Source: Crocinitomicaceae bacterium (GTDB lineage Bacteria; Bacteroidota; Bacteroidia; Flavobacteriales_D; Crocinitomicaceae). From it: a DNA stretch of 32,378 nucleotides. How positions within the stretch are numbered: position 1 is the stretch's first letter; the number at the start of each line of letters is the position of its first letter. The notes under the pieces were generated by a model. That model worked only from the letters and a program-made list of their open reading frames with translations. It ran no database searches and was not told where the DNA came from. Where the stretch lies: the NCBI GenBank assembly GCA_041582905.1, contig JBFHGY010000001.1:1-32378 (forward strand), read 5' to 3'. Position numbers and translations under genes: made by a program. This document shows positions 4,302-20,687 of this stretch, in pieces.

Positions 4302-4386
4302 TTTAGTGTTGTCGATCGAACGTATATCGGTCGAAGAGGCAAATCTATGCCCAAAAAATAACATCTAAATTAAATCTTAAGTGAAA

Positions 4387-7300
4387 ATGATAAAAAGCAC
4401 TATAAAGTTCTTTCTCGAGAATAAGCTAGTAGCGTGGATATTACTCGCATTATTCATTGTTTGGGGACTTGTTACAGCACCATTCAATTACGATTCAGAC
4501 TGGTTACCCAAGGACTCAGTTTCTGTAGATGCAATTCCAGACATTGGTGAAAATCAACAAATCGTATTTACCCAATGGACTGGTAGGTCTCCACAAGACG
4601 TTGAGGATCAGATTACGTACCCGCTCACTTCTGCACTACTGGGAATACCGGGTGTAAAAAGTGTAAGAAGTAATTCCATGTTCGGCTTTTCGAGCATCTA
4701 CCTCATTTTTGAAGAAGACGTTGAGTTTTATTGGAGTAGAAGTCGAATTTTGGAGAAATTAAACTCGCTACCATCCAATTTATTACCTGATGGCGTTCAA
4801 CCGTCTCTCGGCCCTGATGCAACTGCGCTTGGACAAATTTATTGGTACACCTTGGAAGGGCAAGATGATGATGGAAACCCCACGGGTGGATGGGATTTAC
4901 ATGAGTTAAGAACAGTTCAGGATTTTTATGTCAAAAATGCGTTGCAATCTTCGGGAGGTGTGTCTGAAGTCGCATCAATCGGTGGTTTTGTTCAGGAATA
5001 TCAAATTGATGTAGACCCTGAAAAGATGAAATCCTTCGATGTTAGTTTGACACAAGTCATGAAGGCAGCGAAGGAAAGTAACCTCGATATTGGCGCGCAA
5101 ACCATTGAAATAAATCAGGTCGAGTACTTTGTGCGAGGACTCGGTTATGTTAAGCAAATCGCTGATATTGAAGAAGCGGTTGTGGTGGCACCGAACAATG
5201 TTCCAGTGAGAATTAAAGACCTCGCCGTTGTTCATCTTGGGCCGAAAACAAGAAGGGGTATTTTGGATAAGTCGGGAGCTCCAGCGGTAGGTGGAGTTGT
5301 TGTGGCACGATACGGGGCAAATCCGTTGGAAGTTATTGAAAACATCAAATTGAAGATTGCAGAGATTGAAGATGGACTTCCTTCTAAACAACTTGCGGAT
5401 GGTACAGTATCGAAAGTAAAGCTTGTACCATTTTATGATCGAACCCAGCTTATCAATGAGACAATCGGAACACTTGAAGAGGCACTTTCTTTGGAAGTTC
5501 TGATTACCATCATTGTGGTGATTCTCATGTTACTCAACCTAAAGTCTTCACTGCTTATTTCAGCTTCTTTACCAGTAGCCGTACTCATGTGTTTCATAGC
5601 TATGCGATACACAGGTATTGATGCAAATATTGTGGCACTTTCAGGAATTGCAATCGCTGTAGGAACAATGGTTGACATGGGAATTGTACTGACAGAAAGC
5701 ATGATCTCTCAAATGAAGATTGCACCTCCAGATCAATCAATTCAGCGAACAATTTATCTGGCAACTGTTGATGTTGCTTCTGCGGTAATTACGGCAGTGG
5801 CCACGACCATTGTGAGTTTTCTTCCCGTATTTACGATGGAAGCGGCGGAAGGGAAGTTGTTCCGACCATTGGCTTTTACAAAATCCTTTGCTCTCCTCGC
5901 TTCAATTATTCTCGCCCTTACGGTTTTGCCTGCTTTGGCAACAAAGCTTTTTAGCTTCAAGAGCAAAGGGAAAATCTCCAAGTATTTTACGAATGGTGCT
6001 TTGATCATTCTATCGATCATTCTACTATTTACTAACTATGGATTTATTGGCATTTTCGGAGTGATTATTGGATTGGGAGGTGTCATTTCTACATACGCTC
6101 GGGAAGCAAAATCTGAACAATGGAATACGCGTTTTGAGTTTGCAAAGAACATCGTTTATGCTTCTTTGGTTGCCTGGCTATTAGCCAAAACATGGATGCC
6201 ACTGGGTGTAGCCAAAAGTGAAATCCTAAACTTTGTATTCGTAGCCATAATCATTGGAAGTTTAATTAGTACGTTCTATTTGGTGATCCATTTTTATGAA
6301 CGAATATTGCGATTCTTCATTCGAATTCGCTTCGTGTTTATCGGTTTGCTCTTGCTTTTACTATACGCGGGATATTCGGTATTCAGAAATACAGGACAAG
6401 AGTTCATGCCTTCGCTCAATGAAGGTTCGTTCTTGTTAATGCCGACTTCAATGCCTCATGCTGGAATGGAAATGAATGAAGCCAACTTGAGATTACTCGA
6501 TATGTCGGTGAACTCAATTCCTGAAGTTGAAATGGTGGTAGGTAAGGCTGGTCGCGTTGAAAGTTCATTAGATCCCGCTCCGATGTCCATGTATGAAAAC
6601 ATGATCGCCTACAAGTCTGAATATAAATTAGACGAGAACGGACATAAAATTCGATTTAAGGTTGACAAGAACGGAATGTACCTCAAAGATCAGAATGGTG
6701 CGTTGATTCCGGATGAAAACGGTCAGTATTTTCGACAATGGAGGGATCATATTCAATCTCCTGATGATATATGGGAAGAAATCGTAACCGCTACGAAAAT
6801 ACCCGGGATTACATCTGCGCCTAAACTCCAGCCTATTGAAACGAGGTTAGTCATGCTTCAAACAGGAATGCGCGCTCCAATGGGAATCAAAGTTAAAGGA
6901 ACTGACCTCAAAACCATTGAGGAATTTGGTTTACAACTAGAGATGTTCTTAAAGGAAGTGAAAGGAGTAAAGAGATCGGCTGTTTTTGCAGAACGAATTG
7001 TCGGGAAACCTTACCTCATGTTAGATATTCGAAGAGAAGCTATCGGTAAATATGGTTTAACCATTCAGGAAGTTCAAAATCAAATTCAGGCGGCAATTGG
7101 TGGAATGGTTATGACCTCCACCGTGGAAGGACGCGAACGGTATGGGATACGCGTACGTTATCCGATGGAGTTAAGAAATGACCCAGACAAGATCAAAGGA
7201 ATTTACATCAATACTGCCAATGGAGCACAAGTACCACTTGGTGATCTCGTTGAAATAGAATATGAGCAAGGTCCTCAGTCTATCAAAAGTGAAGATGGTT

Positions 7301-8058
7301 TTCTAGTGGGATATGTTCTCTTCGATAAAGAAGATGGGTTTTCTGAGGTAGAATTGGTGAATAGTGCTCAAGATTATTTGAAAGGGAAAATTCAAACGGG
7401 TGCATTGAAAGTACCAAATGGAATTAACTACCAATTTGCGGGTAATTATGAACAGCAATTACGAGCCAATAAGCGTTTGGGAATCGTAATTCCAATTGCG
7501 TTAATCCTCATTTTCTTAATTCTCTACTTCCAATTCCGATCGGTGGTAACCTCCATGTTTGTGTTTTCAGGCGTATTTGTTGCCTTTTCTGGAGGATTCA
7601 TCATGATTTGGTTATACGGTCAGGATTGGTTCATGAATTTTGATCTCTTCGGAACCAATATGCGAGATTTATTCCAAATGAATACCATCAATCTGAGTGT
7701 AGCGGTCTGGGTTGGTTTTCTAGCACTTTTCGGCATAGCTACCGACGATGGTGTTCTCGTTGCCACTTTCTTGAAAGATAGTTTTAAGCGGAACGAACCA
7801 AACAATTTCAAAGAAATCGAAGATGCAGTGGTGGAAGGAGGCCTTAGAAGAGTAAAACCTGCAATGATGACAACTGCTACAACCATTTTGGCACTGCTAC
7901 CTGTGCTTACCTCAACGGGAAAGGGGGCAGACATTATGTTACCCATGGCGATTCCCTCTTTTGGAGGAATGGTGTTGAACGTGATAACCATGTTTACCGT
8001 CCCAGTGCTTTACTATACATGGAGAGCTGGAAGAATGAAATGGAAAAGAAAAAACTAA
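4387..8058 (+). CDS. Heavy-metal efflux RND permease, CusA/CzcA family (enlarged form)
   Basis: Collinear by eye with E. coli CusA from the N-terminus: MIKSTIKF.. vs MIEWIIRR.., DAIPDIGENQ, ITYPLTSALLGIPGVKSVRS, LGPDATALGQIYWY, GGFVQEYQIDVDPEKM. A Met-rich segment LLMPTSMPHAGMEMNE lies where CusA has its Met cluster. The track start GTG 4381 is an alternative. Confidence 0.92.
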   Translation: MIKSTIKFFLENKLVAWILLALFIVWGLVTAPFNYDSDWLPKDSVSVDAIPDIGENQQIVFTQWTGRSPQDVEDQITYPLTSALLGIPGVKSVRSNSMFGFSSIYLIFEEDVEFYWSRSRILEKLNSLPSNLLPDGVQPSLGPDATALGQIYWYTLEGQDDDGNPTGGWDLHELRTVQDFYVKNALQSSGGVSEVASIGGFVQEYQIDVDPEKMKSFDVSLTQVMKAAKESNLDIGAQTIEINQVEYFVRGLGYVKQIADIEEAVVVAPNNVPVRIKDLAVVHLGPKTRRGILDKSGAPAVGGVVVARYGANPLEVIENIKLKIAEIEDGLPSKQLADGTVSKVKLVPFYDRTQLINETIGTLEEALSLEVLITIIVVILMLLNLKSSLLISASLPVAVLMCFIAMRYTGIDANIVALSGIAIAVGTMVDMGIVLTESMISQMKIAPPDQSIQRTIYLATVDVASAVITAVATTIVSFLPVFTMEAAEGKLFRPLAFTKSFALLASIILALTVLPALATKLFSFKSKGKISKYFTNGALIILSIILLFTNYGFIGIFGVIIGLGGVISTYAREAKSEQWNTRFEFAKNIVYASLVAWLLAKTWMPLGVAKSEILNFVFVAIIIGSLISTFYLVIHFYERILRFFIRIRFVFIGLLLLLLYAGYSVFRNTGQEFMPSLNEGSFLLMPTSMPHAGMEMNEANLRLLDMSVNSIPEVEMVVGKAGRVESSLDPAPMSMYENMIAYKSEYKLDENGHKIRFKVDKNGMYLKDQNGALIPDENGQYFRQWRDHIQSPDDIWEEIVTATKIPGITSAPKLQPIETRLVMLQTGMRAPMGIKVKGTDLKTIEEFGLQLEMFLKEVKGVKRSAVFAERIVGKPYLMLDIRREAIGKYGLTIQEVQNQIQAAIGGMVMTSTVEGRERYGIRVRYPMELRNDPDKIKGIYINTANGAQVPLGDLVEIEYEQGPQSIKSEDGFLVGYVLFDKEDGFSEVELVNSAQDYLKGKIQTGALKVPNGINYQFAGNYEQQLRANKRLGIVIPIALILIFLILYFQFRSVVTSMFVFSGVFVAFSGGFIMIWLYGQDWFMNFDLFGTNMRDLFQMNTINLSVAVWVGFLALFGIATDDGVLVATFLKDSFKRNEPNNFKEIEDAVVEGGLRRVKPAMMTTATTILALLPVLTSTGKGADIMLPMAIPSFGGMVLNVITMFTVPVLYYTWRAGRMKWKRKN

Positions 8059-8059
8059 T

Positions 8060-9310
8060 ATGATGAGTATGAAAAGTATATATCTTTTGGCGCTTACTTG
8101 TGCATTTGTGCTGTTCGTTCAATTGTATGGGAGTGCTCAAACCTTAGATTCGCTTTATCAGATTTCGGTAAGGAACAATCCTGAACTGAAAGCAATTGAG
8201 CTAGAGTATCTCGCTCTATTGGAACAAGAGAATCAGGTGAGCCAATTGCCCAATCCTCAGTTGGGTGTGGGTGTGCCTGTCATGCGCCCAGAAACACGTT
8301 TAGGTCCTCAGATGATGATGATCAGTGCCACACAGATGTTCCCTTGGTTTGGAACGCTCGATACCAAAAAGGAGGTGGTGATTCAATTATCGAAAGCCAA
8401 GTACGAAGAGCTTTCAGCGATAAAACTGAATCTTTTCTTTCAAATTAAGTCTGCATATTATCAATTGGTGTTTGTCCAGCAGAAAAAAGAACTGTATATC
8501 CAAAGTAAAAAAAACTACAAAGCCCTCGAATCGCTAGCGCTTTCGAGAGTGGAGGCTGGTCAATCGTCTTTGGCTGATGTGTTGAGAGTACAAACGAAAA
8601 TTGATGAATACGATATGCTCATCGAACAACTATCAAACGAAGAGTTGGCGTATACTGTGCAGATCAACACTCTGTTAAACCAACCCATTGAAAATCCAGT
8701 CTCTGTTGTCGATTCTATTGATTATCGCTTTAGTGAATACGATTTGAATGCCTATCAGTTGAAGATTCAGCATCATCATCCGATCATTAAACAACTGGAT
8801 TATCAAATCGCGGCTTCGAATAGTAGACTCGTGGTGAATCAAAAAATGAATCAGCCAACGCTGGGAGTAGGCGTCGACTACAGCTTGGTAAATCCACGAA
8901 CAGATGCTAATCCTCAGGACAATGGAAGAGATATTCTTGTGCCGAAGGTGATGCTTTCCATCCCGATTTATCGTAAGCAATACCGAAGTGTTATCAGTGA
9001 AGAAAAACTGAATCAGGATGCAATGAATTATCGAAAGGAAAGTGCAACTGATGAAATGATTATGCGAATTGTGACATTCAAAAGTGAGTTTGACAACGCT
9101 CATCTGACTCATGAACTAACATTGCAGCAAGAAGAGAAAATAAGAAGTGCGTACGAAATTCTTTTGGCGAGCTACAGTGCAGATGGAAAAAAAATGGAAG
9201 AGCTACTGTCAACACAAAATGAATTGATTCAAATTCAACTAAAGACAAGAATCAGCAGATTGAATATGGGGATGGCGAAAGCAAAAATTGAACGCTTAAC
9301 GCATTTTTAA
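8060..9310 (+). CDS. TolC-family outer membrane efflux protein (CusC-like)
   Basis: 416 aa with a signal peptide and the two-repeat coiled/beta pattern typical of outer membrane factors (NPELKA..., RLGPQ..., LGVGVDYSL). Starts 2 nt after the cusA-like stop. Confidence 0.85.
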   Translation: MMSMKSIYLLALTCAFVLFVQLYGSAQTLDSLYQISVRNNPELKAIELEYLALLEQENQVSQLPNPQLGVGVPVMRPETRLGPQMMMISATQMFPWFGTLDTKKEVVIQLSKAKYEELSAIKLNLFFQIKSAYYQLVFVQQKKELYIQSKKNYKALESLALSRVEAGQSSLADVLRVQTKIDEYDMLIEQLSNEELAYTVQINTLLNQPIENPVSVVDSIDYRFSEYDLNAYQLKIQHHHPIIKQLDYQIAASNSRLVVNQKMNQPTLGVGVDYSLVNPRTDANPQDNGRDILVPKVMLSIPIYRKQYRSVISEEKLNQDAMNYRKESATDEMIMRIVTFKSEFDNAHLTHELTLQQEEKIRSAYEILLASYSADGKKMEELLSTQNELIQIQLKTRISRLNMGMAKAKIERLTHF

Positions 9311-9319
9311 GAAGAAACA

Positions 9320-11089
9320 ATGAAAAAATATATAATATACATCGGTTTACCACTTTTCGGGTTATTGCTCGGCTGGGTAATTTTCGGAGGAGGTACACAG
9401 GGAGAAGATACCTCAATAAAGGCCCACAATCATGTGGAGGAAGATCAAATCTGGACGTGCTCCATGCACCCTCAAATCAGACAACCAGAACCTGGAGATT
9501 GCCCAATTTGTGGAATGGATTTGATTCCACTGGATGAAAATGCGAATCAGAACGAACTTGTTTTCTCCATGTCCGAAGATGCGGTACGATTGGCAAATAT
9601 CCAAACGACGATTGTTGGTAGCGGAGGTAATCATGCTCAGGGAATATCTCTGTCTGGACGAATAGAAGCAGATGAAACGGCTTCTTCTAGTGTCGTGACG
9701 CACATCCCGGGTAGAATTGAAAAACTATACATCGGTTTTACGGGAGAAAACGTACGACGTGGGCAAAGGGTGGCAAAGATGTACTCATCCGATTACATCA
9801 CCGCACAGCGAGAATTATTAGAAGCGTACAAAGTGAAGGATGTCAGTCCGAGTCTGCTCAAAGCGGCAAAAAACAAACTGAGATACTGGAAGATTAGCGA
9901 TGAAGAAATCAATGGCATAATTGAACGTAATCGCGTAAATGAGTACATCGATATTCGCTCAGAGTATTCTGGGGTTGTACACCGTAAGTTAGTGTCGGTG
10001 GGAGATCATTTAGGTCAGGGACAAGCACTATTCGAATTACAGAATTTAGGAAAACTCTGGGCGGTTTTCGATGCCTATGAGTCGCAATTAAACGCAATTG
10101 AATTGGGCGAAACAATCACATTTACAACACCCTCTGTCGCTGGGGAGGAGTTTAGTTCGAAGGTCGACTTCATTGATCCAGTAATCAATCCAAACTCCCG
10201 AACTGCACGTATTCGGATGGAGGTGAACAATGCAAAAGGTCGTTTAAAACCAGAGATGTTCATTCGTGGAAATATTGAAGGTGATCTTTCGGCGCAGGAA
10301 GTATTGACTGTTCCAAAATCAGCGGTTTTATGGACAGGTACAAGGTCGGTTGTGTATGTTAAAGTGCCAGATGTGATGGTACCAACATTTGAATACCGCG
10401 AAATAGAACTTGGGAAATCGACGGGAGAAAATTACGAAATCGTTGAAGGGTTGAAATCAGGAGAGGAAGTAGTAACGAATGGAGCATTCGTGATTGATGC
10501 TTCGGCGCAACTGAATAATCAGTCGAGTATGATGAATAAAAATCTACTCGAATCGTCTCAATCGAAACCTTCGTCAGAACCAGCGGAAAAGTTTGAAGCG
10601 AATGAAGCCTTCCTCCACCAATTAGCGAATGTGACAGAGAAATATATACTGATCAAAGATGCGCTTGTGGCGGACAATTCAAAAAAGGTAAAGATGGCAG
10701 CGAAAGAAATGCTTTCAGCACTGAAAGGAGTGGACATGAAGCTGTTGGACGATCAGGCACATATCTTTTGGATGAAAAAGATCAAGACCTTGAAAGAATC
10801 ACTGAACAAGATGCTGGAATCTGGTAAGATTAATGCACAGCGTATTTCATTTGGTGTACTCTCCCAAAACTACATTCAGGTGATGCAAACATTTGGCTCC
10901 AACTCTCAGGATTTGTACGTACAGGAATGTACAATGGCTTTCGACAACAAAGGAGCGCGGTGGCTGAGTACTGAAAAGAAGATTTTTAATCCATACTATG
11001 GAGCCGATATGCTGAATTGTGGCTCTGTAATTGACTCAATTAGAAAAGAAAATAATGACAAAGCAGATCATAGCGGTCATGCTCATTAA
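9320..11089 (+). CDS. RND periplasmic adaptor (CusB-like) with N-terminal heavy-metal-binding domain and C-terminal DUF3347-like extension
   Basis: WTCSMHPQIRQPEPGDCPICGMDL (paired Cys motifs). Central membrane-fusion-protein core (GRIEADE..., HIPGRIEKLY, FIDPVINPNSRTARIRMEVNN, VVYVK...FEYREIELG). Tail with ...MAFDNKGARWLSTEKKIFNPYYGADMLNCGSV and a terminal HSGHAH. Confidence 0.88.
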   Translation: MKKYIIYIGLPLFGLLLGWVIFGGGTQGEDTSIKAHNHVEEDQIWTCSMHPQIRQPEPGDCPICGMDLIPLDENANQNELVFSMSEDAVRLANIQTTIVGSGGNHAQGISLSGRIEADETASSSVVTHIPGRIEKLYIGFTGENVRRGQRVAKMYSSDYITAQRELLEAYKVKDVSPSLLKAAKNKLRYWKISDEEINGIIERNRVNEYIDIRSEYSGVVHRKLVSVGDHLGQGQALFELQNLGKLWAVFDAYESQLNAIELGETITFTTPSVAGEEFSSKVDFIDPVINPNSRTARIRMEVNNAKGRLKPEMFIRGNIEGDLSAQEVLTVPKSAVLWTGTRSVVYVKVPDVMVPTFEYREIELGKSTGENYEIVEGLKSGEEVVTNGAFVIDASAQLNNQSSMMNKNLLESSQSKPSSEPAEKFEANEAFLHQLANVTEKYILIKDALVADNSKKVKMAAKEMLSALKGVDMKLLDDQAHIFWMKKIKTLKESLNKMLESGKINAQRISFGVLSQNYIQVMQTFGSNSQDLYVQECTMAFDNKGARWLSTEKKIFNPYYGADMLNCGSVIDSIRKENNDKADHSGHAH

Positions 11090-11111
11090 CATCAAAATAA
11101 ATCAGAATAAT

Positions 11112-11456
11112 ATGAAAAGAACAATGTTAACGCTTGCAATTGCAGCATTTTTGGTGTCTTGTGGCGGACAAGGTCCAAAAGAAGGAGAAGTAAAAGAAAC
11201 ATTTACGGTTTATGGAAACTGTGGGATGTGTAAAAAAACAATTGAAGGTTCGCTCAATGGAGTAGATGGTGTATCATCTGCTGAATGGAACATGGACAAT
11301 GATAAGATGACAGTCATTTTTGATGAAAGCACAATTTCGTTGGACGATGTAAAACAAAAGATTGCCAGCGTCGGTTATGACATGGATGATGTTCGTGCTG
11401 ATGACGAGGTCTACAATAAATTACATTCATGCTGTCAATATGATAGACCGGAATAG
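11112..11456 (+). CDS. Heavy-metal-associated (HMA) domain lipoprotein
   Basis: Lipobox LVSCGG. HMA-type metal motif YGNCGMCKKTIEG. C-terminal HSCCQYDRPE. The track ORF starts at 11031 inside the upstream gene. In-frame ATG 11112 gives a clean lipoprotein signal peptide. Confidence 0.85.
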   Translation: MKRTMLTLAIAAFLVSCGGQGPKEGEVKETFTVYGNCGMCKKTIEGSLNGVDGVSSAEWNMDNDKMTVIFDESTISLDDVKQKIASVGYDMDDVRADDEVYNKLHSCCQYDRPE

Positions 11457-11656: not shown

Positions 11657-12562
11657 TTAATCTCCTCCTAAATTCGCTTCCAACCCGATTCTAGCATACG
11701 CGCGAACTCTTGGATCTGTGTTTTTCTTAAGCGCTTCTTTCCAAACATCTTCCGAAGAGGTAATCTTGTGTAATGTATCTAAGCTTTCTTGTCGGATCAG
11801 TCCGTCTTCGTGGTTGTTTGAAAGCTGCTCCAATAGGTCCACCGTACGATCATTGTGAATGAATTGAGCCAAATTGAGAATGCTGAATTTGCCAATATTA
11901 TTTCCTCCTTCGTAGATCAAACTTTTGATTTTTTTTGCTTCCGTGTCAAATGCATACTGACGCTCGCGTTTGTCATCGCTTCTCAGAATAATATTGATGG
12001 CCAATGCGTCTTCTTCCTCTGGAGGAAATTGACAATGTATGTCTTTTGAGGGACGAAAGTAGAGCGCTTTTTTTTCTGACAAATACGTGCTTTCAAGAAA
12101 ACGCAGGTCGACCGGTTCCCCGGCATAACCGATTACCTGATCATAATCGTACTCCCATAAATCTGTTTTGTACCCTTGCCCTTTGTATCCTGCTGTGAGT
12201 AATGAAAAGTTATGATCATGAGCGAATCCATACGAAAAGAGCTTGTTTTGGGCATCTCTAATGCTTTTGTTCGAAGATAAAATGGGCCAATACGTCAAAC
12301 GAACAAAATATTCAGGTGTCTCATGAAGAATATAACTCTGTTCCGAATACTGATTGTGCAATTGAAACTTGTTCACATCTCCCATGAGGTTCGTATTCAA
12401 AAAATCTAGAAAAAACTGTTTATTATTCGCGAGTTTCAGCAGAACATCCGAACAGGACAACAAGGAAGCCTCATCCTTCTTTTTGATTTTGTTTGTGACG
12501 GTATTTATGAAATCGTCAAAAGATATTTCTTCATCGGATTGTATTGAAAATGATAATGCCAT
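11657..12562 (-). CDS. Hypothetical protein: cupin-like domain with candidate 3-His site plus C-terminal HEAT-like repeats
   Basis: 301 aa. LTYWP...FSYGFAHDHNFSLLTAGYKGQGY resembles cupin motif 1 of CDO/COG5553-type metalloenzymes, with a later DIHCQ His. The C-terminus ...NTDPRVRAYARIGL is HEAT/PBS-lyase-like. Paralogous to the upstream gene, 8-nt spacer. Confidence 0.75.
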   Translation of the reverse strand: MALSFSIQSDEEISFDDFINTVTNKIKKKDEASLLSCSDVLLKLANNKQFFLDFLNTNLMGDVNKFQLHNQYSEQSYILHETPEYFVRLTYWPILSSNKSIRDAQNKLFSYGFAHDHNFSLLTAGYKGQGYKTDLWEYDYDQVIGYAGEPVDLRFLESTYLSEKKALYFRPSKDIHCQFPPEEEDALAINIILRSDDKRERQYAFDTEAKKIKSLIYEGGNNIGKFSILNLAQFIHNDRTVDLLEQLSNNHEDGLIRQESLDTLHKITSSEDVWKEALKKNTDPRVRAYARIGLEANLGGD

Positions 12563-12570
12563 AGCTGATT

Positions 12571-13434
12571 TTATTGATTGAGAATAGATAAAGATTGAAG
12601 AGCAGCTCTCTTCACTTCTTCATGTGTTTCATTTATTGCCATGTCTTTCAAAATAGCAAGTCCGTTATCGTAGTCTAGATTGATCATAGATCGAGCATTC
12701 TCCCATCGCACGGTATGTATAGCGCTAGTTACAAACCTATTCAAAACATCTACAGAAGAGTCATTTCCTATCTGACCTAATATTTTTAAAGAAGTTTCAA
12801 GACGTGCAATATTGGTGTCAGCGAGTACAATTCTATTCGGTTTGAGCGTAGTGGCGTCGTACTCCCATGAATACGCCAAGGGGTTTGCTTTGAGCTTAAG
12901 TACGAGAGAAACAAGAGGTTTGTATTTGTCGATGTGTAGAATATCCTTGAATTTTTCAATGTAAATGGCTTTGCCTGGAGCTTGCTTTTCATCAATATGA
13001 GATTCGAGGTAAAATGATTCTTTGAGAAGGGTTGGGTCATTCGTTTTTCGTTGCTGGAATATTTTGTAATTCGAATTGACGTCGATAATAGGACAGAAAA
13101 CAATGTCTTGTACATGCGAATACATAACAGATCCAATGAATTCTTTCGGTTTTCCAAAACTGCAGTGGATGTCCAATTCGAAATCAGCTTCATCCAGTAA
13201 AACAAGATTATTATAGTTTCCTTTCAGTGTGAAAGAAGCATCCTGTTGCAAGAGTCTTTCAATACTCTGATTGATGATTTCTTCCAAGGGACAGTTTTCA
13301 TAAAGCCGTTCAATCTGGCGTATGCAGTTTTCCCTGCTGGTGTTCTCGAGCAATGATTTTCTGAAGTTAGCGATGGATGGGAAAGTTGCTGCATAATCGA
13401 AATAGGTTCTTTCCGTGGTTGGTTGTTCATTCAT
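12571..13434 (-). CDS. Hypothetical protein: degenerate paralog of the cupin-like/HEAT-like protein
   Basis: 287 aa, collinear by eye with the 301-aa protein, but HDH is replaced by YSHVQD. C-terminal HEAT-like TSAIHTVRWENARSM...THEEVKRAALQSL. Confidence 0.75.
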   Translation of the reverse strand: MNEQPTTERTYFDYAATFPSIANFRKSLLENTSRENCIRQIERLYENCPLEEIINQSIERLLQQDASFTLKGNYNNLVLLDEADFELDIHCSFGKPKEFIGSVMYSHVQDIVFCPIIDVNSNYKIFQQRKTNDPTLLKESFYLESHIDEKQAPGKAIYIEKFKDILHIDKYKPLVSLVLKLKANPLAYSWEYDATTLKPNRIVLADTNIARLETSLKILGQIGNDSSVDVLNRFVTSAIHTVRWENARSMINLDYDNGLAILKDMAINETHEEVKRAALQSLSILNQ

Positions 13435-13489
13435 TAGGTTGAAGTTGATGACGAAATGTAAATGAGAAGTGAAATCTGAGTGTAAGAAA

Positions 13490-13521
13490 CTGCCTCACCA
13501 TTGTTTTTTGAGGCGAGGCAG
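13490..13521 (-). terminator. Hairpin between the small ORF and the cupin/HEAT genes (attenuator or terminator-like)
   Basis: CTGCCTC (13490-13496) pairs with GAGGCAG (13515-13521). An alternative register pairs GCCTCA with TGAGGC. On the minus strand the stem is followed by TTTCTT. Confidence 0.35.
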
Positions 13522-13530
13522 ATCTGTTGA

Positions 13531-13647
13531 TTAATGCCAGATATACCAAATGGCAAATACGCATGGTAAGGCTCCAGTGAACGACTCTTTTTTAAAGTTA
13601 GAGTTGATTGGATTGTCTAGCTCTGGTAATACAATTCTCTTTTTCAT
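13531..13647 (-). CDS. Candidate 38-aa peptide ORF (MKKRIVLPELDNPINSNFKKESFTGALPCVFAIWYIWH)
   Basis: I translated this by hand from the reverse complement. It is below the ORF-track size cutoff. ATG start with an in-frame TGA three codons upstream. Same strand as, and directly upstream of, the cupin/HEAT pair. Charged N-terminal half, aromatic/hydrophobic C-terminus with a single Cys. An ORF this short in AT-rich DNA could be chance. Confidence 0.25.
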   Translation of the reverse strand: MKKRIVLPELDNPINSNFKKESFTGALPCVFAIWYIWH

Positions 13648-13941
13648 GATTACTCATTTAAATTTATGTTGGTTAGGATATACCAAGCGTACCCACAAAC
13701 GCTACAATGTTGGCTTTATCATTCTAATTTATTTCGAAGGACAAGAAGTCGCATGAATGAAAGCGACTCTACCAAGCTTTGAGGATGGAAGTAACGAAAT
13801 GATCGGGAGTAAAATCATCCCCCAAGGAGGGGAGGAGGGGCTGGTTTGGATAAAAAGTCAAAAAAAATTGTTTCGTTATAACTTGAAAAACAACCACTTG
13901 ACCATCTTCTGAATAAAAAAATCACGAAATCGTAAAAAATG

Positions 13942-14022: not shown

Positions 14023-15000
14023 ATGAAAACAAAATTACTAACGCTCGGCTTATTGGGGGGGCTTCTCCTTGCAGGATGTCAAAAAGAAGACATTGCTCCT
14101 GCTGAAAACACCATTACACCATTAGTACAAAACACGCTTTCCAACTCTTCCACTACAGGATGTGAGGAAGTATTTACATTATTCGCTGGACAGCACATTG
14201 AAGCAGGAACAATTACTGTTTCGAATGACGACACGAATATTTATGTGACGTACGAAACAACTGGAGGATGGGTGTTGAATGAAACACATTTGTACGTAGG
14301 AGATCCTGCAGGTATTCCAACAAACGGTGCTGGAAACCCAACAATTGGATTATTCCCTTACAACGACACGCACAATGGAGTGACATCATATACTGTAACT
14401 GTTCCGATTGATCCTTCTTTGGAATGTTACGCAGTTGCTGCACATGCTTCTGTAAGCTTGATCCAAAATGGAGTACCTGTTCAACAAGAAACAGCTTGGG
14501 GGAACGGAAATCCAATTAATAACGGTGGAAGCTGGGCAACGTACTCAGATTACTGCTTGCAAGATTGTTGTGAGTACGAAACAATATCATACGATTACTT
14601 CGCAGGACAAACAATCCCTGTAGGGTCGTTGGATGTAACAAATGACGATCAAAACTTATACATCACATTTAACTTCGAAGGTGGAGATTGGTACACACAA
14701 CAAACACACTTGTATGTTGGGCCAGCCTCTGATATCCCTACAAATGGCGCAAATACTCCCGTGCCTGGTCAATTCCCATACGCAGTAACACACGATCCTG
14801 CCGTACAAACGTATACGTATACTATTCCATTAAATGATTTGGATCCTTGCTACGTGATCGCTGCACACTCTGAAATGATTCAAGTGGATGGGAATGGAAA
14901 CGTTGTGTCTGAAGAAACAGGATGGAGTTATGGAATAGAATTTCCGAATACACCACGTTGGGGATGGTACAGTGAGTACTGCACGCAAGTATGTAACTAA
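14023..15000 (+). CDS. Lipoprotein made of two tandem homologous ~140-aa Cys-bracketed domains
   Basis: Lipobox LLLAGC. FAGQHIEAGTITVSNDDTNIYVTYETTGGW..THLYVGD..IPTNGAGNP..ECYAVAAHA is repeated as FAGQTIPVGSLDVTNDDQNLYITFNFEGGDW..THLYVGP..IPTNGANTP..PCYVIAAHS. Confidence 0.85.
   Translation: MKTKLLTLGLLGGLLLAGCQKEDIAPAENTITPLVQNTLSNSSTTGCEEVFTLFAGQHIEAGTITVSNDDTNIYVTYETTGGWVLNETHLYVGDPAGIPTNGAGNPTIGLFPYNDTHNGVTSYTVTVPIDPSLECYAVAAHASVSLIQNGVPVQQETAWGNGNPINNGGSWATYSDYCLQDCCEYETISYDYFAGQTIPVGSLDVTNDDQNLYITFNFEGGDWYTQQTHLYVGPASDIPTNGANTPVPGQFPYAVTHDPAVQTYTYTIPLNDLDPCYVIAAHSEMIQVDGNGNVVSEETGWSYGIEFPNTPRWGWYSEYCTQVCN
14161..14997 (+). repeat. Internal tandem domain duplication (14161-14568 and 14569-14997)
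   Basis: Protein-level repeat, aa 47-182 vs 183-325, with conserved Cys positions (see the CDS evidence). Confidence 0.7.
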
Positions 15001-15934: not shown

Positions 15935-16531
15935 TTGAGCAAAGAACGGGAGTATAAAATCGTTAGAGGATGCATAAAGGGAAAACGCCTTGCATTCAAA
16001 CAACTTTATGAGTTGTATAAGGATGATATGTTCCGTGTTTGCCGAACGTATGCTCCAAATTATGAGGTGGCAAACGATTTTTTACAAGAGGGTTTTTTAA
16101 AAGTGTTTCAGAATTTACACAAGTATGATCACAAAAGAAGCTTGGGAGGATGGATGCGTCGTGTGATGATTAATAACTCCATTGACATGTTGCGCAGAGA
16201 TCATTGGGATAAGATCGTGGTTACGCTAAATGAAGATTACGAGCAGGGAAGAGCAGAAAGAATTGAAAATGATTTTGAAAGACGACTCAACTCGAGTTCT
16301 TTCTTTGAAATACTAGATAAACTACCCCTTGGGTACAAAACAATTTTGAACCTTCATTATTTGGAAGGATTAACACATAAAGACATCTCGGAGAAGTTAG
16401 GAATCACCGAAGGAAGCTCGAAATCGCAACTTTCGAAAGCAAAAAAATACCTGAAAGGTACCTTACTGAAGGAAATGTCAATAAACGAAATAGAAGAATA
16501 TGTTGGACAATTGGCTAAAGAAGTGGTATAG
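15935..16531 (+). CDS. RNA polymerase ECF-type sigma-70 family factor
   Basis: Region 2 pattern AFKQLYELYKDDMFRVCRTY...ANDFLQEGFLKVFQNLHKYD. Region 4 HTH LPLGYKTILNLHYLEGLTHKDISEKLGITEGSSKSQLSKAKKYL. Apparent TTG start, because the first in-frame ATG would delete region 2.1. Confidence 0.88.
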   Translation: MSKEREYKIVRGCIKGKRLAFKQLYELYKDDMFRVCRTYAPNYEVANDFLQEGFLKVFQNLHKYDHKRSLGGWMRRVMINNSIDMLRRDHWDKIVVTLNEDYEQGRAERIENDFERRLNSSSFFEILDKLPLGYKTILNLHYLEGLTHKDISEKLGITEGSSKSQLSKAKKYLKGTLLKEMSINEIEEYVGQLAKEVV

Positions 16532-17878: not shown

Positions 17879-18805
17879 CTATAACTTAATGAGCTTTTCA
17901 TGGCTCACTTCGTCATTGTCAAGAACGATACTGATGAGGTAAAATCCAGCCTTCCAATCAAAAGTGGAAACTTCAACTGTTCCGATCAAACCTTCAAGTT
18001 TTTCGATTAATTCACCATTTGAATTATGTATGGTTAACGAATACTGCTGATTTCCTGCAGTCGATACCTGAAACTCCGAGTTCACTGGATTGGGAGAGAT
18101 GTCAAACGGTTCACTTTCAATTGATCTTACAGATAAGGCTGTTGGACATTCACCACTCGCTAAAACGACAGAGTCTTGCACATTCGAATAGGAGTTTCCA
18201 TCAAAAGTCGCACATGTCCATTCTTGTGAATATGACACCGACCCATAACCAGGATCACTTAATAGTCCATGATTCGATCCAAATCCTTCAAACCAATTAA
18301 CAGGGGGGAGGCCTGATGTACCATTCTCAACCGAAATGATGTGATGATAGCTTCCCATCAACAGAAAGGAATCAACCTCAGTGACATAAACATCCTGAAG
18401 TCCGCTTGGTGTTATGGTGCCGCCATAGTACTCCATGGAGAATACATCATTAATGGTATCTCCCACCGCTACGTCAAAATCATAGAGCAAATACTCGGCG
18501 GTAGAATCCTTTGGAACAATCGTTACGCGTTTATTAGTTACATCATTTCGAAAAGCAGCGACGTAACTGGTCGTGATCAAACCACTCTGACTTATCGTTT
18601 TTTCCTGAATTTTAATAAAATTATGGGTGTTGATGAGCGTGTCTCCATCAGTAAATACTATTTGATGCCAATCTGGCTCTGTCCAAGCCCAATCGTGCCA
18701 TGTGTGAAGCCAAGTCGCATTGTTTTCGGGAATTGGGTGATAACTTTGAGAAAAAGCAGTAACGGTAAAGAGTGAGATGAAAGTGAGGGTGAAAAATCGT
18801 TTCAT
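17879..18805 (-). CDS. Secreted hypothetical protein with T9SS C-terminal sorting domain
   Basis: The internal ATG at 18805 gives the signal peptide MKRFFTLTFISLFTVTAFSQ. The track start 18868 would overlap the upstream gene. C-terminal FDISPNPVNSEFQVS...FYLISIVLDNDEVSHEKLIKL. Confidence 0.82.
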   Translation of the reverse strand: MKRFFTLTFISLFTVTAFSQSYHPIPENNATWLHTWHDWAWTEPDWHQIVFTDGDTLINTHNFIKIQEKTISQSGLITTSYVAAFRNDVTNKRVTIVPKDSTAEYLLYDFDVAVGDTINDVFSMEYYGGTITPSGLQDVYVTEVDSFLLMGSYHHIISVENGTSGLPPVNWFEGFGSNHGLLSDPGYGSVSYSQEWTCATFDGNSYSNVQDSVVLASGECPTALSVRSIESEPFDISPNPVNSEFQVSTAGNQQYSLTIHNSNGELIEKLEGLIGTVEVSTFDWKAGFYLISIVLDNDEVSHEKLIKL

Positions 18806-18830
18806 GACTGTGCGTTTTGATTCGTTGATG

Positions 18831-20687
18831 TTACTTCTGAAGATTGTAAACTCGTTCAGTTGTGCCATCCGAGTAAATGTAGATAAGTGGTGTGTTTGCT
18901 CGTGGCGATGTTACTCGACCCATCAAATCAACTATTTTGATCACCGTTTTTTCGTTTTCGGGCAGTTCAGTAATTCCAATAAAGCAAGGATTTCCGCAGT
19001 CTGTACTGAATGAAGTCTGCGCATCAATATTCGTCCAATTGGCACTCGACCATGCAACATCGTCTACTTGAATACAGTTTAGATTCGGATTACCTGTCGC
19101 CCAAAAGGAGAAGATCGATGAGTTTGCACCATTTTGAACATTCAAACAATAAAGTTGATTCGAGGTGCAACCCACAAGACCCAATGCCGAGTTTTGAGTA
19201 AGATCTAGAGAGGTAATTTGATTCGAATCACATATGGCTACGTAGAGGTTTGTGTTTTGGGTAAGGTCAAGTTCGGTTAGTTGATTGTTATTACACGATA
19301 CCGAAAACAAACTTGGATTCTGCGTGATATCTAAACTTGTGATTTGATTATTTGAACAAAACAAGTCGTGCAATGATGAATTTTGAGACACATCCAATGA
19401 TGTCAATTGGTTAAATCCACATGACAGTTGATACAATCCAGTTATGTGGGAAACACCTATACTCGACAGTTGATTATACGAACAACTCAGGTGGGTCAAC
19501 ATCGTGTTTTGGGTTAAATCAAGCACTGTGATTTGATTTGAGTCGCAATCTAAGATAACTAAATCTGGGTTCTGAGATACGTCTAATGCTGCAATAGCGT
19601 TTCTGTGACAACTCAGTGTATTAAGGTCTGCCTGATTGGAAACATCGATAGAGGCAAGTAGATTATATCCGCACTGTATATTTACTAACAATGGATTCGA
19701 GGAAAGGTCGAGTGCCGTCAATTGATTATTATTACACTCAAGATGTGTCAAATTTGAATTTTGAGAAAGGTCCAAAGATGTCAATTGATTGAGCCAACAT
19801 TTCAACGATGTCAAGTTTACATTGTTGGATACATCCAAAGAAGTCAATAGATTCTCCCCACAGTCGAGATGAATTAAGGCTGTGTTTTGTGATAAATCAA
19901 GACTTGTTAATTGGTTGTAAGGAACTTCTAATGAAGTAAGATTGGTAAATGCTTCTATTCCTACAAGACTTGTAATTCCTTCGTAATCACATACAATTCC
20001 ACCCGTATAGGCGCTGGCTTCAGAACATTGTATCTCATTGTCTCCATTTGTGTTGATCCCAGGCATTCCGACAAGAATCGCTTTAAAATTTGCGTCCGGA
20101 ATGGTGACAACGCACGGACAATTCGTGCTAAAGCTCGTTTGCGGATCAATATTTGTCCATGTCGATGTGCTATATGTAACATCATCAACGGTGATGCAGG
20201 TCAAGTTGGGGTTGGTATGCGCCGAAAAGGAATTTTGTCCCATGCTGATATTATTTCCATTCGCCACATTCAAATAACTCAGTTGATTGATTTGACACAA
20301 TAAATTATTCAAGGACGTATTCTGACTTACATCGAGGGAGGTTAACTGATTGGCTCCGCAAAATAATAGTTCCAGCGCTGTGTTGGCACTAACATCGAGG
20401 CTCGTCAATGCGTTGGATTGGCAGCGTAATTCCGTTATTGCAATAAATGCTTCGATACCCGTTAAATCTGAGATAGACAATCCCTGACAGGAGATGACTC
20501 CAGTAAATGCGGACGCTTCAGCTACCTGTATTTCGGTATCTCCGTTGGTGTTAATGGAGGTATTTCCTACTAAGTAGGCTTTAAAATTGGCATCAGGAAT
20601 GAGTACATTTTGAGCGTGGGAAAGTCCGCAGATCATGAAAACTGCAACTAAAGCAGTAATAAATTTAGGTTTAGTTAAGTGCATCAT
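18831..20687 (-). CDS. Leucine-rich-repeat surface/secreted protein with T9SS-like C-terminal domain
   Basis: Signal peptide ...GLSHAQ. Two modules (aa 27-190 and 193-564), each with cap IPDANFKA.LVG..INTNGD.EIQ, 21-aa LRRs (LTSLD[VL]SQNT.L..L.C..NQ; 3 and ~13 copies) and cap NPNL.CI.VDDV..S...WTNID.QTSFST.C. Short beta-rich tail. Confidence 0.88.
   Translation of the reverse strand: MMHLTKPKFITALVAVFMICGLSHAQNVLIPDANFKAYLVGNTSINTNGDTEIQVAEASAFTGVISCQGLSISDLTGIEAFIAITELRCQSNALTSLDVSANTALELLFCGANQLTSLDVSQNTSLNNLLCQINQLSYLNVANGNNISMGQNSFSAHTNPNLTCITVDDVTYSTSTWTNIDPQTSFSTNCPCVVTIPDANFKAILVGMPGINTNGDNEIQCSEASAYTGGIVCDYEGITSLVGIEAFTNLTSLEVPYNQLTSLDLSQNTALIHLDCGENLLTSLDVSNNVNLTSLKCWLNQLTSLDLSQNSNLTHLECNNNQLTALDLSSNPLLVNIQCGYNLLASIDVSNQADLNTLSCHRNAIAALDVSQNPDLVILDCDSNQITVLDLTQNTMLTHLSCSYNQLSSIGVSHITGLYQLSCGFNQLTSLDVSQNSSLHDLFCSNNQITSLDITQNPSLFSVSCNNNQLTELDLTQNTNLYVAICDSNQITSLDLTQNSALGLVGCTSNQLYCLNVQNGANSSIFSFWATGNPNLNCIQVDDVAWSSANWTNIDAQTSFSTDCGNPCFIGITELPENEKTVIKIVDLMGRVTSPRANTPLIYIYSDGTTERVYNLQK
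19152..19976 (-). repeat. Array of ~13 consecutive 63-nt (21-aa) LRR coding units
   Basis: I counted these on the protein (aa ~238-510). The periodic LTSLD.SQN...L.C..NQ units also recur at the DNA level. Confidence 0.75.

Follow-up and report, generated by a model that had tools for sequence, protein, structure and literature searches.

A short leader peptide and two paralogous cupin–HEAT proteins form a conserved bacterial gene cassette with a possible role in peptide modification

Results

A three-gene cassette on the minus strand of a Crocinitomicaceae contig

We analyzed a 32,378-nucleotide stretch of DNA from a Crocinitomicaceae bacterium (the window; positions 1 to 32,378 of contig JBFHGY010000001.1, GenBank assembly GCA_041582905.1), in which three minus-strand genes and an intervening hairpin form a cassette. 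The first gene (13531-13647; 38 codons and a stop) codes for a candidate precursor peptide of 38 aa, MKKRIVLPELDNPINSNFKKESFTGALPCVFAIWYIWH, composed of a leader (residues 1-26; 13570-13647) that contains the motif LPELDNPI and of a variable hydrophobic/aromatic tail, LPCVFAIWYIWH (residues 27-38; 13534-13569), with a cysteine at position 29 (codon 13561-13563). Directly 3' of it lies a stem-loop with a 10-bp stem and a 12-nt loop (13490-13521), followed by gene B (12571-13434), whose 287-aa product is predicted to have helices at the N-terminus, then a cupin-like beta domain that lacks metal ligands, then HEAT repeats at the C-terminus (residues ~205-286; 12577-12822; Pfam HEAT_2). Gene A (11657-12562) codes for a putative metalloenzyme of 301 aa, with helices at 15-60, a cupin barrel at 76-216 and HEAT-like helices at 221-298 (11669-11902). 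Its predicted metal ligands lie in H115-D116-H117 (codons 12212-12220), the HxH of cupin motif 1, and in D174-I175-H176 (codons 12035-12043), which carries the His of motif 2.

A first-pass annotation of this DNA had pointed out these open reading frames (ORFs), the 8 nt that separate the stop of B from the ATG of A, and the motifs FAHDHNFSLLTAGYKGQGY and DIHCQ in A and YSHVQD in B, all of which we found as described, coordinates included. It had also likened the layout to that of loci for precursor peptides and their modifying enzymes, and the likeness holds up: a peptide with a leader/core architecture stands beside co-inherited B and A genes, and the hairpin between them is conserved.

The peptide gene is conserved in its leader and variable in its tail

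Comparison with other genomes indicates that the 38-aa ORF is a genuine gene, conserved in synteny. In Tenacibaculum, Flagellimonas and a sphingomonad metagenome (L001-L003 among the loci that we retrieved, numbered L001 onwards), small ORFs of 42-46 aa precede a HEAT_2 protein (245-312 aa) and then A, and have in common a (L/I)PEL(K/D)(N/T)(P/S) motif. One or two small ORFs are found just 5' of the B-like gene in almost all retrieved genome loci. An alignment of 28 precursors revealed a shared plan, namely a basic N-terminus, the motif phi-x-(L/I)-x-x-L-(D/E/N/K)-x-(P)-(V/I), a stretch of 12-16 polar residues, and a variable hydrophobic tail. We ran a hidden Markov model (HMM) built from the leader only on the loci and the window, translated in six frames and cut into 16,269 stop-to-stop segments in all, with a cut-off of E < 0.01. 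It gave a match at the expected place, just 5' of B-A, in 61 of 85 sources, and no spurious match among the 16,269 segments; the five matches that lie elsewhere are all precursors ~3.5 kb downstream of A, and come from a rearranged locus of the Nevskiaceae/Stagnimonas type. At loci of these bacteria (L018, L019, L025 and L027) the precursor genes, some of them in tandem, lie downstream of B-A past a large gene on the opposite strand, and their tails are aromatic and Pro-rich (e.g. AAFLFYAFIPPN), not membrane-like.

Flavobacterial relatives keep a near-identical leader (LPELxNPINSNFxxESFTG) though their A proteins are only ~50% identical to that of the window. Between the window and a relative (L086), leader codons 5-26 comprise 10 identical, 9 synonymous and 3 non-synonymous positions, against none identical, 4 synonymous and 7 non-synonymous for core codons 27-37, a pattern that points to a leader under purifying selection and a core that diverges. 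Some single loci (L040, L062, L078, L021 and L025) hold precursors duplicated in tandem whose tails differ. A Shine-Dalgarno-like motif stands before the peptide ATG in 50 of 70 loci; among the loci shown, those without one include every Bacteroidota locus, as expected for this phylum, but also some of the Nevskia type. In the window, the exact Bacteroidota -7 box (TAnnTTTG) was not found within ~380 nt upstream of the peptide ATG, where near-matches are TAAATTTA, ending 11 nt before the ATG, and TAGCGTTTG, ~50 nt upstream of it.

The 38-aa gene has been left unannotated because gene callers pick a 68-aa ORF on the opposite strand (13550-13756, plus), which is annotated in the near-identical contigs L090 and L091. 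We rejected this antisense ORF as a real gene, since its frame is not kept open in relatives (stretches of 32-72 aa) whereas the peptide frame shows the signature of purifying selection; on the same grounds we rejected the possibility that the 38-aa ORF has arisen by chance. The first-pass view of the small ORF as a possible gene is therefore well supported, its leader being conserved in synteny across phyla and its tail variable. A conserved leader followed by a variable core is the architecture expected of precursors of peptides that are made by ribosomes and modified after translation (RiPPs), and it is what these alignments indicate.

A conserved hairpin separates the peptide gene from B and A

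The hairpin of the window has a folding energy of -20.4 kcal/mol (z = -4.26), and none of 200 dinucleotide shuffles was as stable. The first-pass annotation had described it as followed by a T-rich stretch: the stable hairpin is there, and is moreover conserved as a feature across loci, but the T-tract is weak, amounting to TTTCTTACA only. A generic terminator scan of the window did not list it. A scan of the whole window against Rfam found no family, on which ground we rejected a known riboswitch or leader RNA. Elsewhere, the 80 nt after the peptide stop fold with z < -2 in 67% of 69 distinct loci (median -2.8), and many loci have a G+C stem followed by a T-run (e.g. L006, L008, L019, L042 and L048). 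This element likely separates the transcription of the precursor gene from that of the enzyme genes as an attenuator or partial terminator, a partial terminator in this position being a familiar device of RiPP operons.

Protein A has a thiol-dioxygenase-like fold and a predicted three-histidine site

A word-indexed search retrieved 82 homologues of A, all recorded as 'hypothetical protein' and with no Pfam domain on record. An exhaustive profile search brought the family to 1055 clusters (50% identity level), of which 810 scored E <= 1e-10, while a metagenome scan gave one near-identical locus. Pfam, NCBIfam and PADLOC gave nothing for the first ~220 residues of A, and neither Pfam (2025) nor NCBIfam (2026) holds a model for its putative catalytic domain. 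At the C-terminus HEAT_2 scores 19.1 bits, below the cut-off of 27.7, and the family profile matches alphaRep proteins in its HEAT region at E 8e-7 and nothing besides HEAT/alphaRep proteins among PDB sequences. Together with the helices of the model described below, these matches agree with the HEAT-like C-terminal repeats that had been proposed for A. Its N-terminal domain, as well as that of B, does fall in no named family, as had been stated, but this does not extend to the C-terminus of B, which passes the Pfam threshold for HEAT_2 (see below).

Among 226 diverse members of the A family, R88, W92, Y131, D174, H176 and N190 are invariant, H115, H117 and Q178 are each present in 225, and G128 in 224. 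The HxH...H site proposed in the first-pass annotation is thus kept in 225 to 226 of the 226 homologues. Cupins are recognized by a motif 1, G(X)5HXH(X)3-4E(X)6G, and a motif 2 with a His, both on a double-stranded beta-helix. In A, motif 1 reads H115-x-H117-x3-(F/L)121-x6-G128 and motif 2 reads D174-x-H176, on a later strand, and position 121, where motif 1 canonically has a Glu, is occupied by F, L or I in every member. By its motifs and its modelled fold, A therefore belongs to the cupin superfamily, with the Glu replaced as in three-histidine (3-His) cupins, and is predicted to carry a carboxylate-free 3-His site.

The AlphaFold (AF2) model of A is of high confidence (pLDDT 93.8, pTM 0.87), with the beta-barrel at 76-216. 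In a Foldseek search of the PDB, thiol dioxygenases fill the first 28 places, the best being a mercaptosuccinate dioxygenase (8vni, E 1.5e-8), followed by the MDO enzymes of Pseudomonas and Azotobacter, B. subtilis CDO, rat CDO and PCO4; ADO and ergothioneine dioxygenase rank after these, but ahead of generic cupins and JmjC enzymes. Entries 8vni, 4tlf, 3uss, 6xb9, 4qm9 and rat CDO 4z82 all match with probability 1.00 and TM scores (target) of 0.58-0.69, whereas PCO4 and ADO rank lower (E 4e-6 to 5e-5, TM 0.41-0.49). The cupin fold that had been suspected is thus supported by the model, and the closest structures are indeed thiol dioxygenases. Like them, A has helices ahead of its cupin barrel and an HxH...H site in which the motif-1 Glu is replaced by a non-ligand.

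This likeness does not extend to family membership. A Pfam scan of A at E <= 10 gave no match to PF05995 (CDO_I) or PF07847 (PCO_ADO), the two families named in the first-pass annotation, and hhalign of the A profile against rat CDO (sequence verified against 2b5h) returned a probability of 0.3%, so that the link of A with thiol dioxygenases is one of fold and motif only. Small-molecule thiol dioxygenases are defined by a second-sphere Ser-His-Tyr (SHY) motif, in place of which PCO and ADO have X-Asp-Leu (PMC10966181). No Ser-His-Tyr was found in the 226 A members, as they have no conserved fourth His; Y131 is the sole invariant Tyr, and the strand after H176 carries S186-x-S188-x-N190. The peptides of the cassette, for their part, have no N-terminal Cys. 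On motifs and model, A would therefore combine a thiol-dioxygenase-like fold and metal site with a position outside the known families.

Protein B is a distant paralogue of A that lacks the metal ligands

The relation of the two proteins is not visible by BLASTP (best E 0.2). We assembled a B family out of ORFs whose end meets the start of A, taken from 70 loci, and its profile aligns with that of A by hhalign over 257 columns (A 15-298, B 21-286) with 98.2% probability and E 5e-14, and still with 92% and E 6e-7 when the HEAT regions are removed. The paralogy of A and B put forward in the first-pass annotation is thus borne out, though by profile comparison and not by BLASTP. In this alignment H115, H117 and H176 of A face Q/x, I/x and L/F in B, which keeps the neighbouring Asp residues D110 and D164. 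There is no conserved His in the B family, whose only invariant residues, R243 and W244, are both in the HEAT part, where Pfam HEAT_2 scores 32.3 bits against the cut-off of 27.7.

Homologues of B are fewer (3 by word-based search, 17 by profile), and its AF2 model is of moderate confidence only (pLDDT 72), owing to the thin multiple sequence alignment that these few homologues provide. It displays the same three-part architecture as A, and its best fold matches are again thiol dioxygenases (6xb9, E 3e-6), with generic cupins also among the matches. B is thus a distant paralogue of A with the same fold and HEAT module and no metal ligands. That the partner keeps the fold and has lost the HxH agrees with its model and with the missing His triad, and a putative catalytic/pseudo-enzyme pair is a fair description of A and B as predicted.

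A B-like ORF ends at the start of A in 71 of 85 sources, and in most loci the two genes are 1-8 nt apart or overlap by 4-13 nt, a closeness which suggests that they are co-translated and that A and B form a complex.

The persistence of the fold without a metal site in B could also mean that the site of A is structural, and that both proteins are non-enzymatic, serving as binding, chaperone or immunity proteins for an unmodified membrane-active bacteriocin or toxin. HEAT repeats serve as binding modules, there is a likeness between the hydrophobic tails and membrane-active peptides, and the chemistry of the cassette is itself a prediction. We nevertheless hold this to be improbable, since the three His, as well as R88, W92, Y131, D174, Q178 and N190, are conserved almost absolutely over 226 diverse sequences, as is typical of a catalytic centre, the peptide is conserved in its polar leader and not in its potentially membrane-active part, and an enzyme accompanied by a dead paralogue is a common catalytic arrangement.

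The precursor cysteine is frequent but not universal

The first-pass annotation had proposed, as a speculation, a link between the Cys of the peptide and the thiol-dioxygenase-like cupin, in which A would convert the thiol of the precursor to a sulfinic acid (+32 Da). This would fit the best fold matches of A, which are thiol dioxygenases, and its predicted carboxylate-free 3-His site, which is like theirs (PMC10966181). It would also fit the position of the residue: a Cys follows the leader in 45 of 70 distinct precursors, at a constant offset of 14-18 residues past the leader motif that corresponds to the start of the hydrophobic segment and is the same in Flavobacteriia and Sphingomonadales. 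Cys29 of the window peptide sits exactly there, at the leader/core junction.

However, no Cys follows the leader in the other 25 precursors, including 9 of the 15 from Bacteroidota, which have V, A or F at this place; L006 and L007 are examples of naturally Cys-free systems. In Cys-free sister flavobacterial loci A is as close to the A of the window as in Cys-containing ones, and L078 holds one Cys-containing and one Cys-free precursor beside a single A/B pair. When we looked for residues of A that co-vary with the Cys, we obtained only clade markers and no column in or near the metal site, the active site being the same in both groups. To this add the missing Ser-His-Tyr, and the lack of a Pfam CDO_I or PCO_ADO match and of profile similarity to rat CDO. 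As a general rule, the proposed link therefore fails, and we consider it rather unlikely that A is a peptide cysteine dioxygenase. With so many precursors devoid of Cys, the reaction common to the family is probably not a simple thiol-to-sulfinate conversion, although thiol dioxygenation may take place in some members, and oxidation of the Cys29 thiol is possible for the window peptide.

The cassette is widespread, and its additional neighbours are clade-specific

In a scan of one genome per species, from which 80 loci were retrieved, relatives of A were found in at least 568 species genomes, belonging to Bacteroidota, Cyanobacteria, Acidobacteriota, Planctomycetota, Alpha-, Gamma- and Deltaproteobacteria, Actinobacteria and Verrucomicrobiota. 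At least seven phyla keep the order peptide, hairpin, B, A, and this answers in the affirmative the suggestion that the small ORF and the hairpin might be kept in synteny upstream of homologues. The peptide, B and A are the only universal members of the cassette, all other neighbours being clade-specific. Carriers that can be grown in culture include Tenacibaculum sp. MAR_2010_89, Mucilaginibacter endophyticus, Nevskia soli and Sphingomonas parva. The distribution among species is patchy, and the cassette is present on a plasmid-like contig (L088, with Rep3, ParA and MobC/NikA) as well as on an Alteromonas stellipolaris plasmid (CP013927.1, 68152-68940), which indicates horizontal mobility. 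In a Chitinophagaceae metagenome-assembled genome (L020, 5001-7627) we observed two A and one B in convergent arrangement, with A forward, then B and A reverse.

Several of the recurrent neighbours relate to transport. In gammaproteobacteria an ABC ATPase and an ABC-2 permease directly follow A, and Mucilaginibacter, Nostoc, Alteromonas and others have MacB/FtsX plus HlyD beside the cassette. In Flavobacterium, Mucilaginibacter, Chitinophaga, Nostoc and Acidobacteria, the gene directly after A codes for a polytopic membrane protein of 335-345 aa, which we call 'C' (L009, 5882-6880; L010, 5947-6984; L012, 5898-6926; L013, 7236-8285; L014, 5729-6733; L016, 5889-6893). This family, present in three phyla, has a soluble C-terminal domain of ~90 aa and no Pfam or NCBIfam match. 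We found no conserved protease in any cassette locus, and none, nor a PCAT, near the sphingomonad precursors of the 'EVGG' kind. In Tenacibaculum sp. MAR_2010_89 (L001, 1-12891) the cassette lies between duplicated PP-binding/PhyH gene pairs and a nonribosomal peptide synthetase of more than 2300 aa, a neighbourhood that may be a coincidence or a hybrid cluster.

Other neighbours relate to signalling. Directly 5' of the peptide gene and on the same strand, ~27 sphingomonad loci and the flavobacterial L089 carry genes for an extracytoplasmic function (ECF) sigma factor and a multi-pass membrane protein of ~210 aa (L003/L004, 3412-4592; L045, 2483-3618; L089, 835-1971). This membrane protein has an N-terminal (D/E)LxxLxxxW motif, and its sphingomonad and flavobacterial versions are not similar by BLASTP. 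HAMP-GGDEF-EAL genes adjoin the Nevskia loci, and CHASE2-cyclase, CHAT and TPR genes are found near the sphingomonad ones. Finally, a database protein of 901 aa (P0113) is a fusion of an A-type cupin-HEAT module (1-294) with a TPR-S sensor region and an adenylate/guanylate cyclase, which hints that an A module can be wired into signalling.

These observations raise the possibility that the cassette is a sensor or regulatory module, where a tail-anchored small protein would be bound or oxidised by A/B according to O2, iron or redox state and would feed ECF sigma/anti-sigma or cyclic-nucleotide signalling. Such a module would be a bacterial analogue of oxygen sensing by PCO and ADO, two known oxygen sensors (PMC8503633) that are among the fold matches of A. 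The ECF, GGDEF-EAL, CHASE2-cyclase, CHAT and TPR neighbours and the P0113 fusion would all be in line with it, as would an ECF sigma gene 2.3 kb from the cassette in the window and the aliphatic nature of the tails, 36 of 70 of which pass the Kyte-Doolittle threshold for a transmembrane segment. Yet 28 of the 70 tails have fewer than 15 uncharged residues, that of the window stays below the threshold (0.76 vs 1.6), and those of the Nevskia type are charged or aromatic. The signalling neighbours are clade-specific, unlike the peptide, B and A, and in the window two genes separate the cassette from the ECF gene, which lies on the opposite strand. The logic of a RiPP system is a better match for precursors in tandem whose tails diverge, a hairpin resembling a terminator, and adjacent exporters, and ECF sigma/anti-sigma pairs also regulate RiPP clusters, for example that of microbisporicin. 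We therefore consider a sensory role unlikely, while giving it a little more weight than a general cysteine dioxygenation.

Surroundings of the cassette in the window

None of these recurrent additional genes adjoins the cassette in the window, which thus represents the bare three-gene core. As described in the first-pass annotation, it sits between a metal island and an ECF module, and the flanking genes confirm this setting. On one side is a heavy-metal efflux island of the Cus/Czc type (4381-11456, plus) coding for a CusA/CzcA-like RND pump, an outer-membrane factor, a CusB-like fusion protein that carries HMBD and DUF3347 domains, and an HMA metallochaperone. The TTG start listed for the HMA gene overlaps the preceding gene by 59 nt and is probably too far upstream. 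On the other side, the two genes that separate the cassette from the ECF sigma gene (15935-16531, on the strand opposite to the cassette) are a lipoprotein-like gene (14023-15000, plus; 325 aa, LLAGC lipobox, no Pfam match), then a gene of unknown kind. The lipoprotein-like protein is made of two internal repeats of ~150 aa (...FAGQxIxxGxxxVxNDDxNxYxT...THLYVGxxxxIPTNGxxxPxxGxFPY...). Further on are cargo proteins of the type IX secretion system, with a Por_Secre_tail and leucine-rich repeat and beta-propeller domains (17879-20687 and 21029-23440, minus), in keeping with a Bacteroidota (Flavobacteriia-like) source of the window. PADLOC, Pfam and NCBIfam searches with A, B and the peptide gave nothing besides HEAT_2, and a role in defence was dropped for this reason.

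Discussion

Comparison with known systems

Full-text literature searches found no description of a peptide/cupin-HEAT system, and source databases label the A and B proteins 'hypothetical' or 'HEAT repeat domain-containing'. Thiol dioxygenases (CDO and 3-mercaptopropionate/mercaptosuccinate dioxygenases, PF05995; PCO and ADO, PF07847) are the best structural matches of both A and B, and the example of PCO and ADO demonstrates that peptides or proteins can be substrates for this fold (PMC8503633). Apart from the lack of a detectable sequence relation and of the SHY motif of the small-molecule enzymes, A differs from them in its fused HEAT module, its dead-paralogue partner and its dedicated leader peptide, none of which is known for thiol dioxygenases, and in a likely substrate that is often without a thiol.

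A second resemblance is with the PBS-lyase HEAT proteins CpcE/CpcF and NblB, which have C-terminal HEAT_2-type repeats with DPHPxVR and, like A and B, two paralogous HEAT genes side by side. Here, however, the NCBIfam equivalog scores are far under the cut-offs (14-15 bits against 300-330), so that A and B contain HEAT repeats but are not CpcE/NblB proteins. Moreover, only ~80 residues are HEAT, the rest being cupin, and there is no bilin or phycobiliprotein context.

In genetic logic there are parallels with RiPP systems in which an oxidative metalloenzyme is assisted by a leader-binding partner without catalytic activity, such as the MNIO/DUF692 pairs MbnB-MbnC and TglH-TglI, which combine a short leader/core precursor with adjacent genes for an iron enzyme and a partner, have a wide but patchy spread, and are often adjacent to exporters. 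The differences are that the enzyme of the cassette is a cupin and not a TIM-barrel, that its partner is a paralogue of the enzyme itself, and that the cassette has no RiPP recognition element, protease or known tailoring gene and is known here from genes alone. Cupin oxygenases that act on ribosomal peptides have been reported as RiPP peptide hydroxylases in curacozole and thioamitide clusters (PMC11575548; 10.64898/2026.01.07.698260). They are accessory enzymes within larger YcaO or cyanobactin-like clusters, whereas here the cupin pair is the sole conserved enzyme and would define the class. The logic of precursor, enzyme and partner is thus known from RiPPs, and what is new is the enzyme family, the pairing with a dead paralogue, and the mismatch between a thiol-dioxygenase fold and a substrate that is often thiol-free.

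A RiPP-like cassette

We favour, with somewhat more belief than doubt, the reading that the three minus-strand genes are a single RiPP-like unit, made of a peptide and two proteins that act on it. In such a unit, A and B would form a complex in which the HEAT modules and/or the dead cupin of B would dock the leader, and a mononuclear Fe(II) 3-His centre of A would use O2 to oxidise the peptide. The site of oxidation would be in or near the start of the hydrophobic segment, at the leader/tail junction, with Cys29 as the obvious candidate in the window peptide. The hairpin would keep the precursor transcript above that of the enzymes, and the hydrophobic peptide product would be exported or inserted into the membrane. 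Besides the leader/core architecture of the peptide, this reading draws on the co-inheritance of the putative modifying proteins beside the precursor, the catalytic activity of A being predicted from its metal site.

Several points weigh against it. The function of the cassette is deduced from its sequence alone, with the modification, the complex and the metal all being predictions and the 3-His site of A putative. The cassette has no conserved protease alongside it, a Pfam scan gave no RiPP recognition element, and in the window no transporter adjoins it. The tails are mostly aliphatic, with I, V, A, L and G accounting for 63% of their last 12 positions, and about half of them pass the classical transmembrane threshold, so that a conserved N-terminus followed by a variable hydrophobic C-terminus would also fit a small tail-anchored membrane protein. 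Last, the neighbouring ECF sigma factor with its membrane protein, the cyclase, GGDEF-EAL, CHAT and TPR genes, and the fusion of A with TPR and cyclase regions speak for signalling.

A more specific proposal, to which we give rather less than even credence, is that the RiPP-like unit represents an undescribed class, in which an iron enzyme of thiol-dioxygenase fold and its dead paralogue would carry out, via their HEAT modules, a leader-directed oxidation of short hydrophobic peptides other than a simple conversion of Cys to sulfinate. A would then be the first enzyme of the CDO fold in bacteria to be directed at peptides. The reaction could even include an oxidative removal of the leader, which is conceivable given that no protease is conserved.

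If A does modify the peptide, it would define a new metalloenzyme family that acts on peptides, and probably also a new class of RiPP, present in at least 568 species from seven or more phyla. It would extend the thiol-dioxygenase fold, associated so far with small-molecule thiols and with the sensing of oxygen through N-terminal Cys in eukaryotes, to dedicated bacterial peptides. The leader motif combined with the A-family motif HDHNF(S/P)(F/L)LT provides a simple rule for genome mining, and the minimal unit of three genes is small enough to be expressed at once in a heterologous host. The occurrence of Cys-free precursors beside an unchanged 3-His site suggests a chemistry that has not yet been described for this fold.

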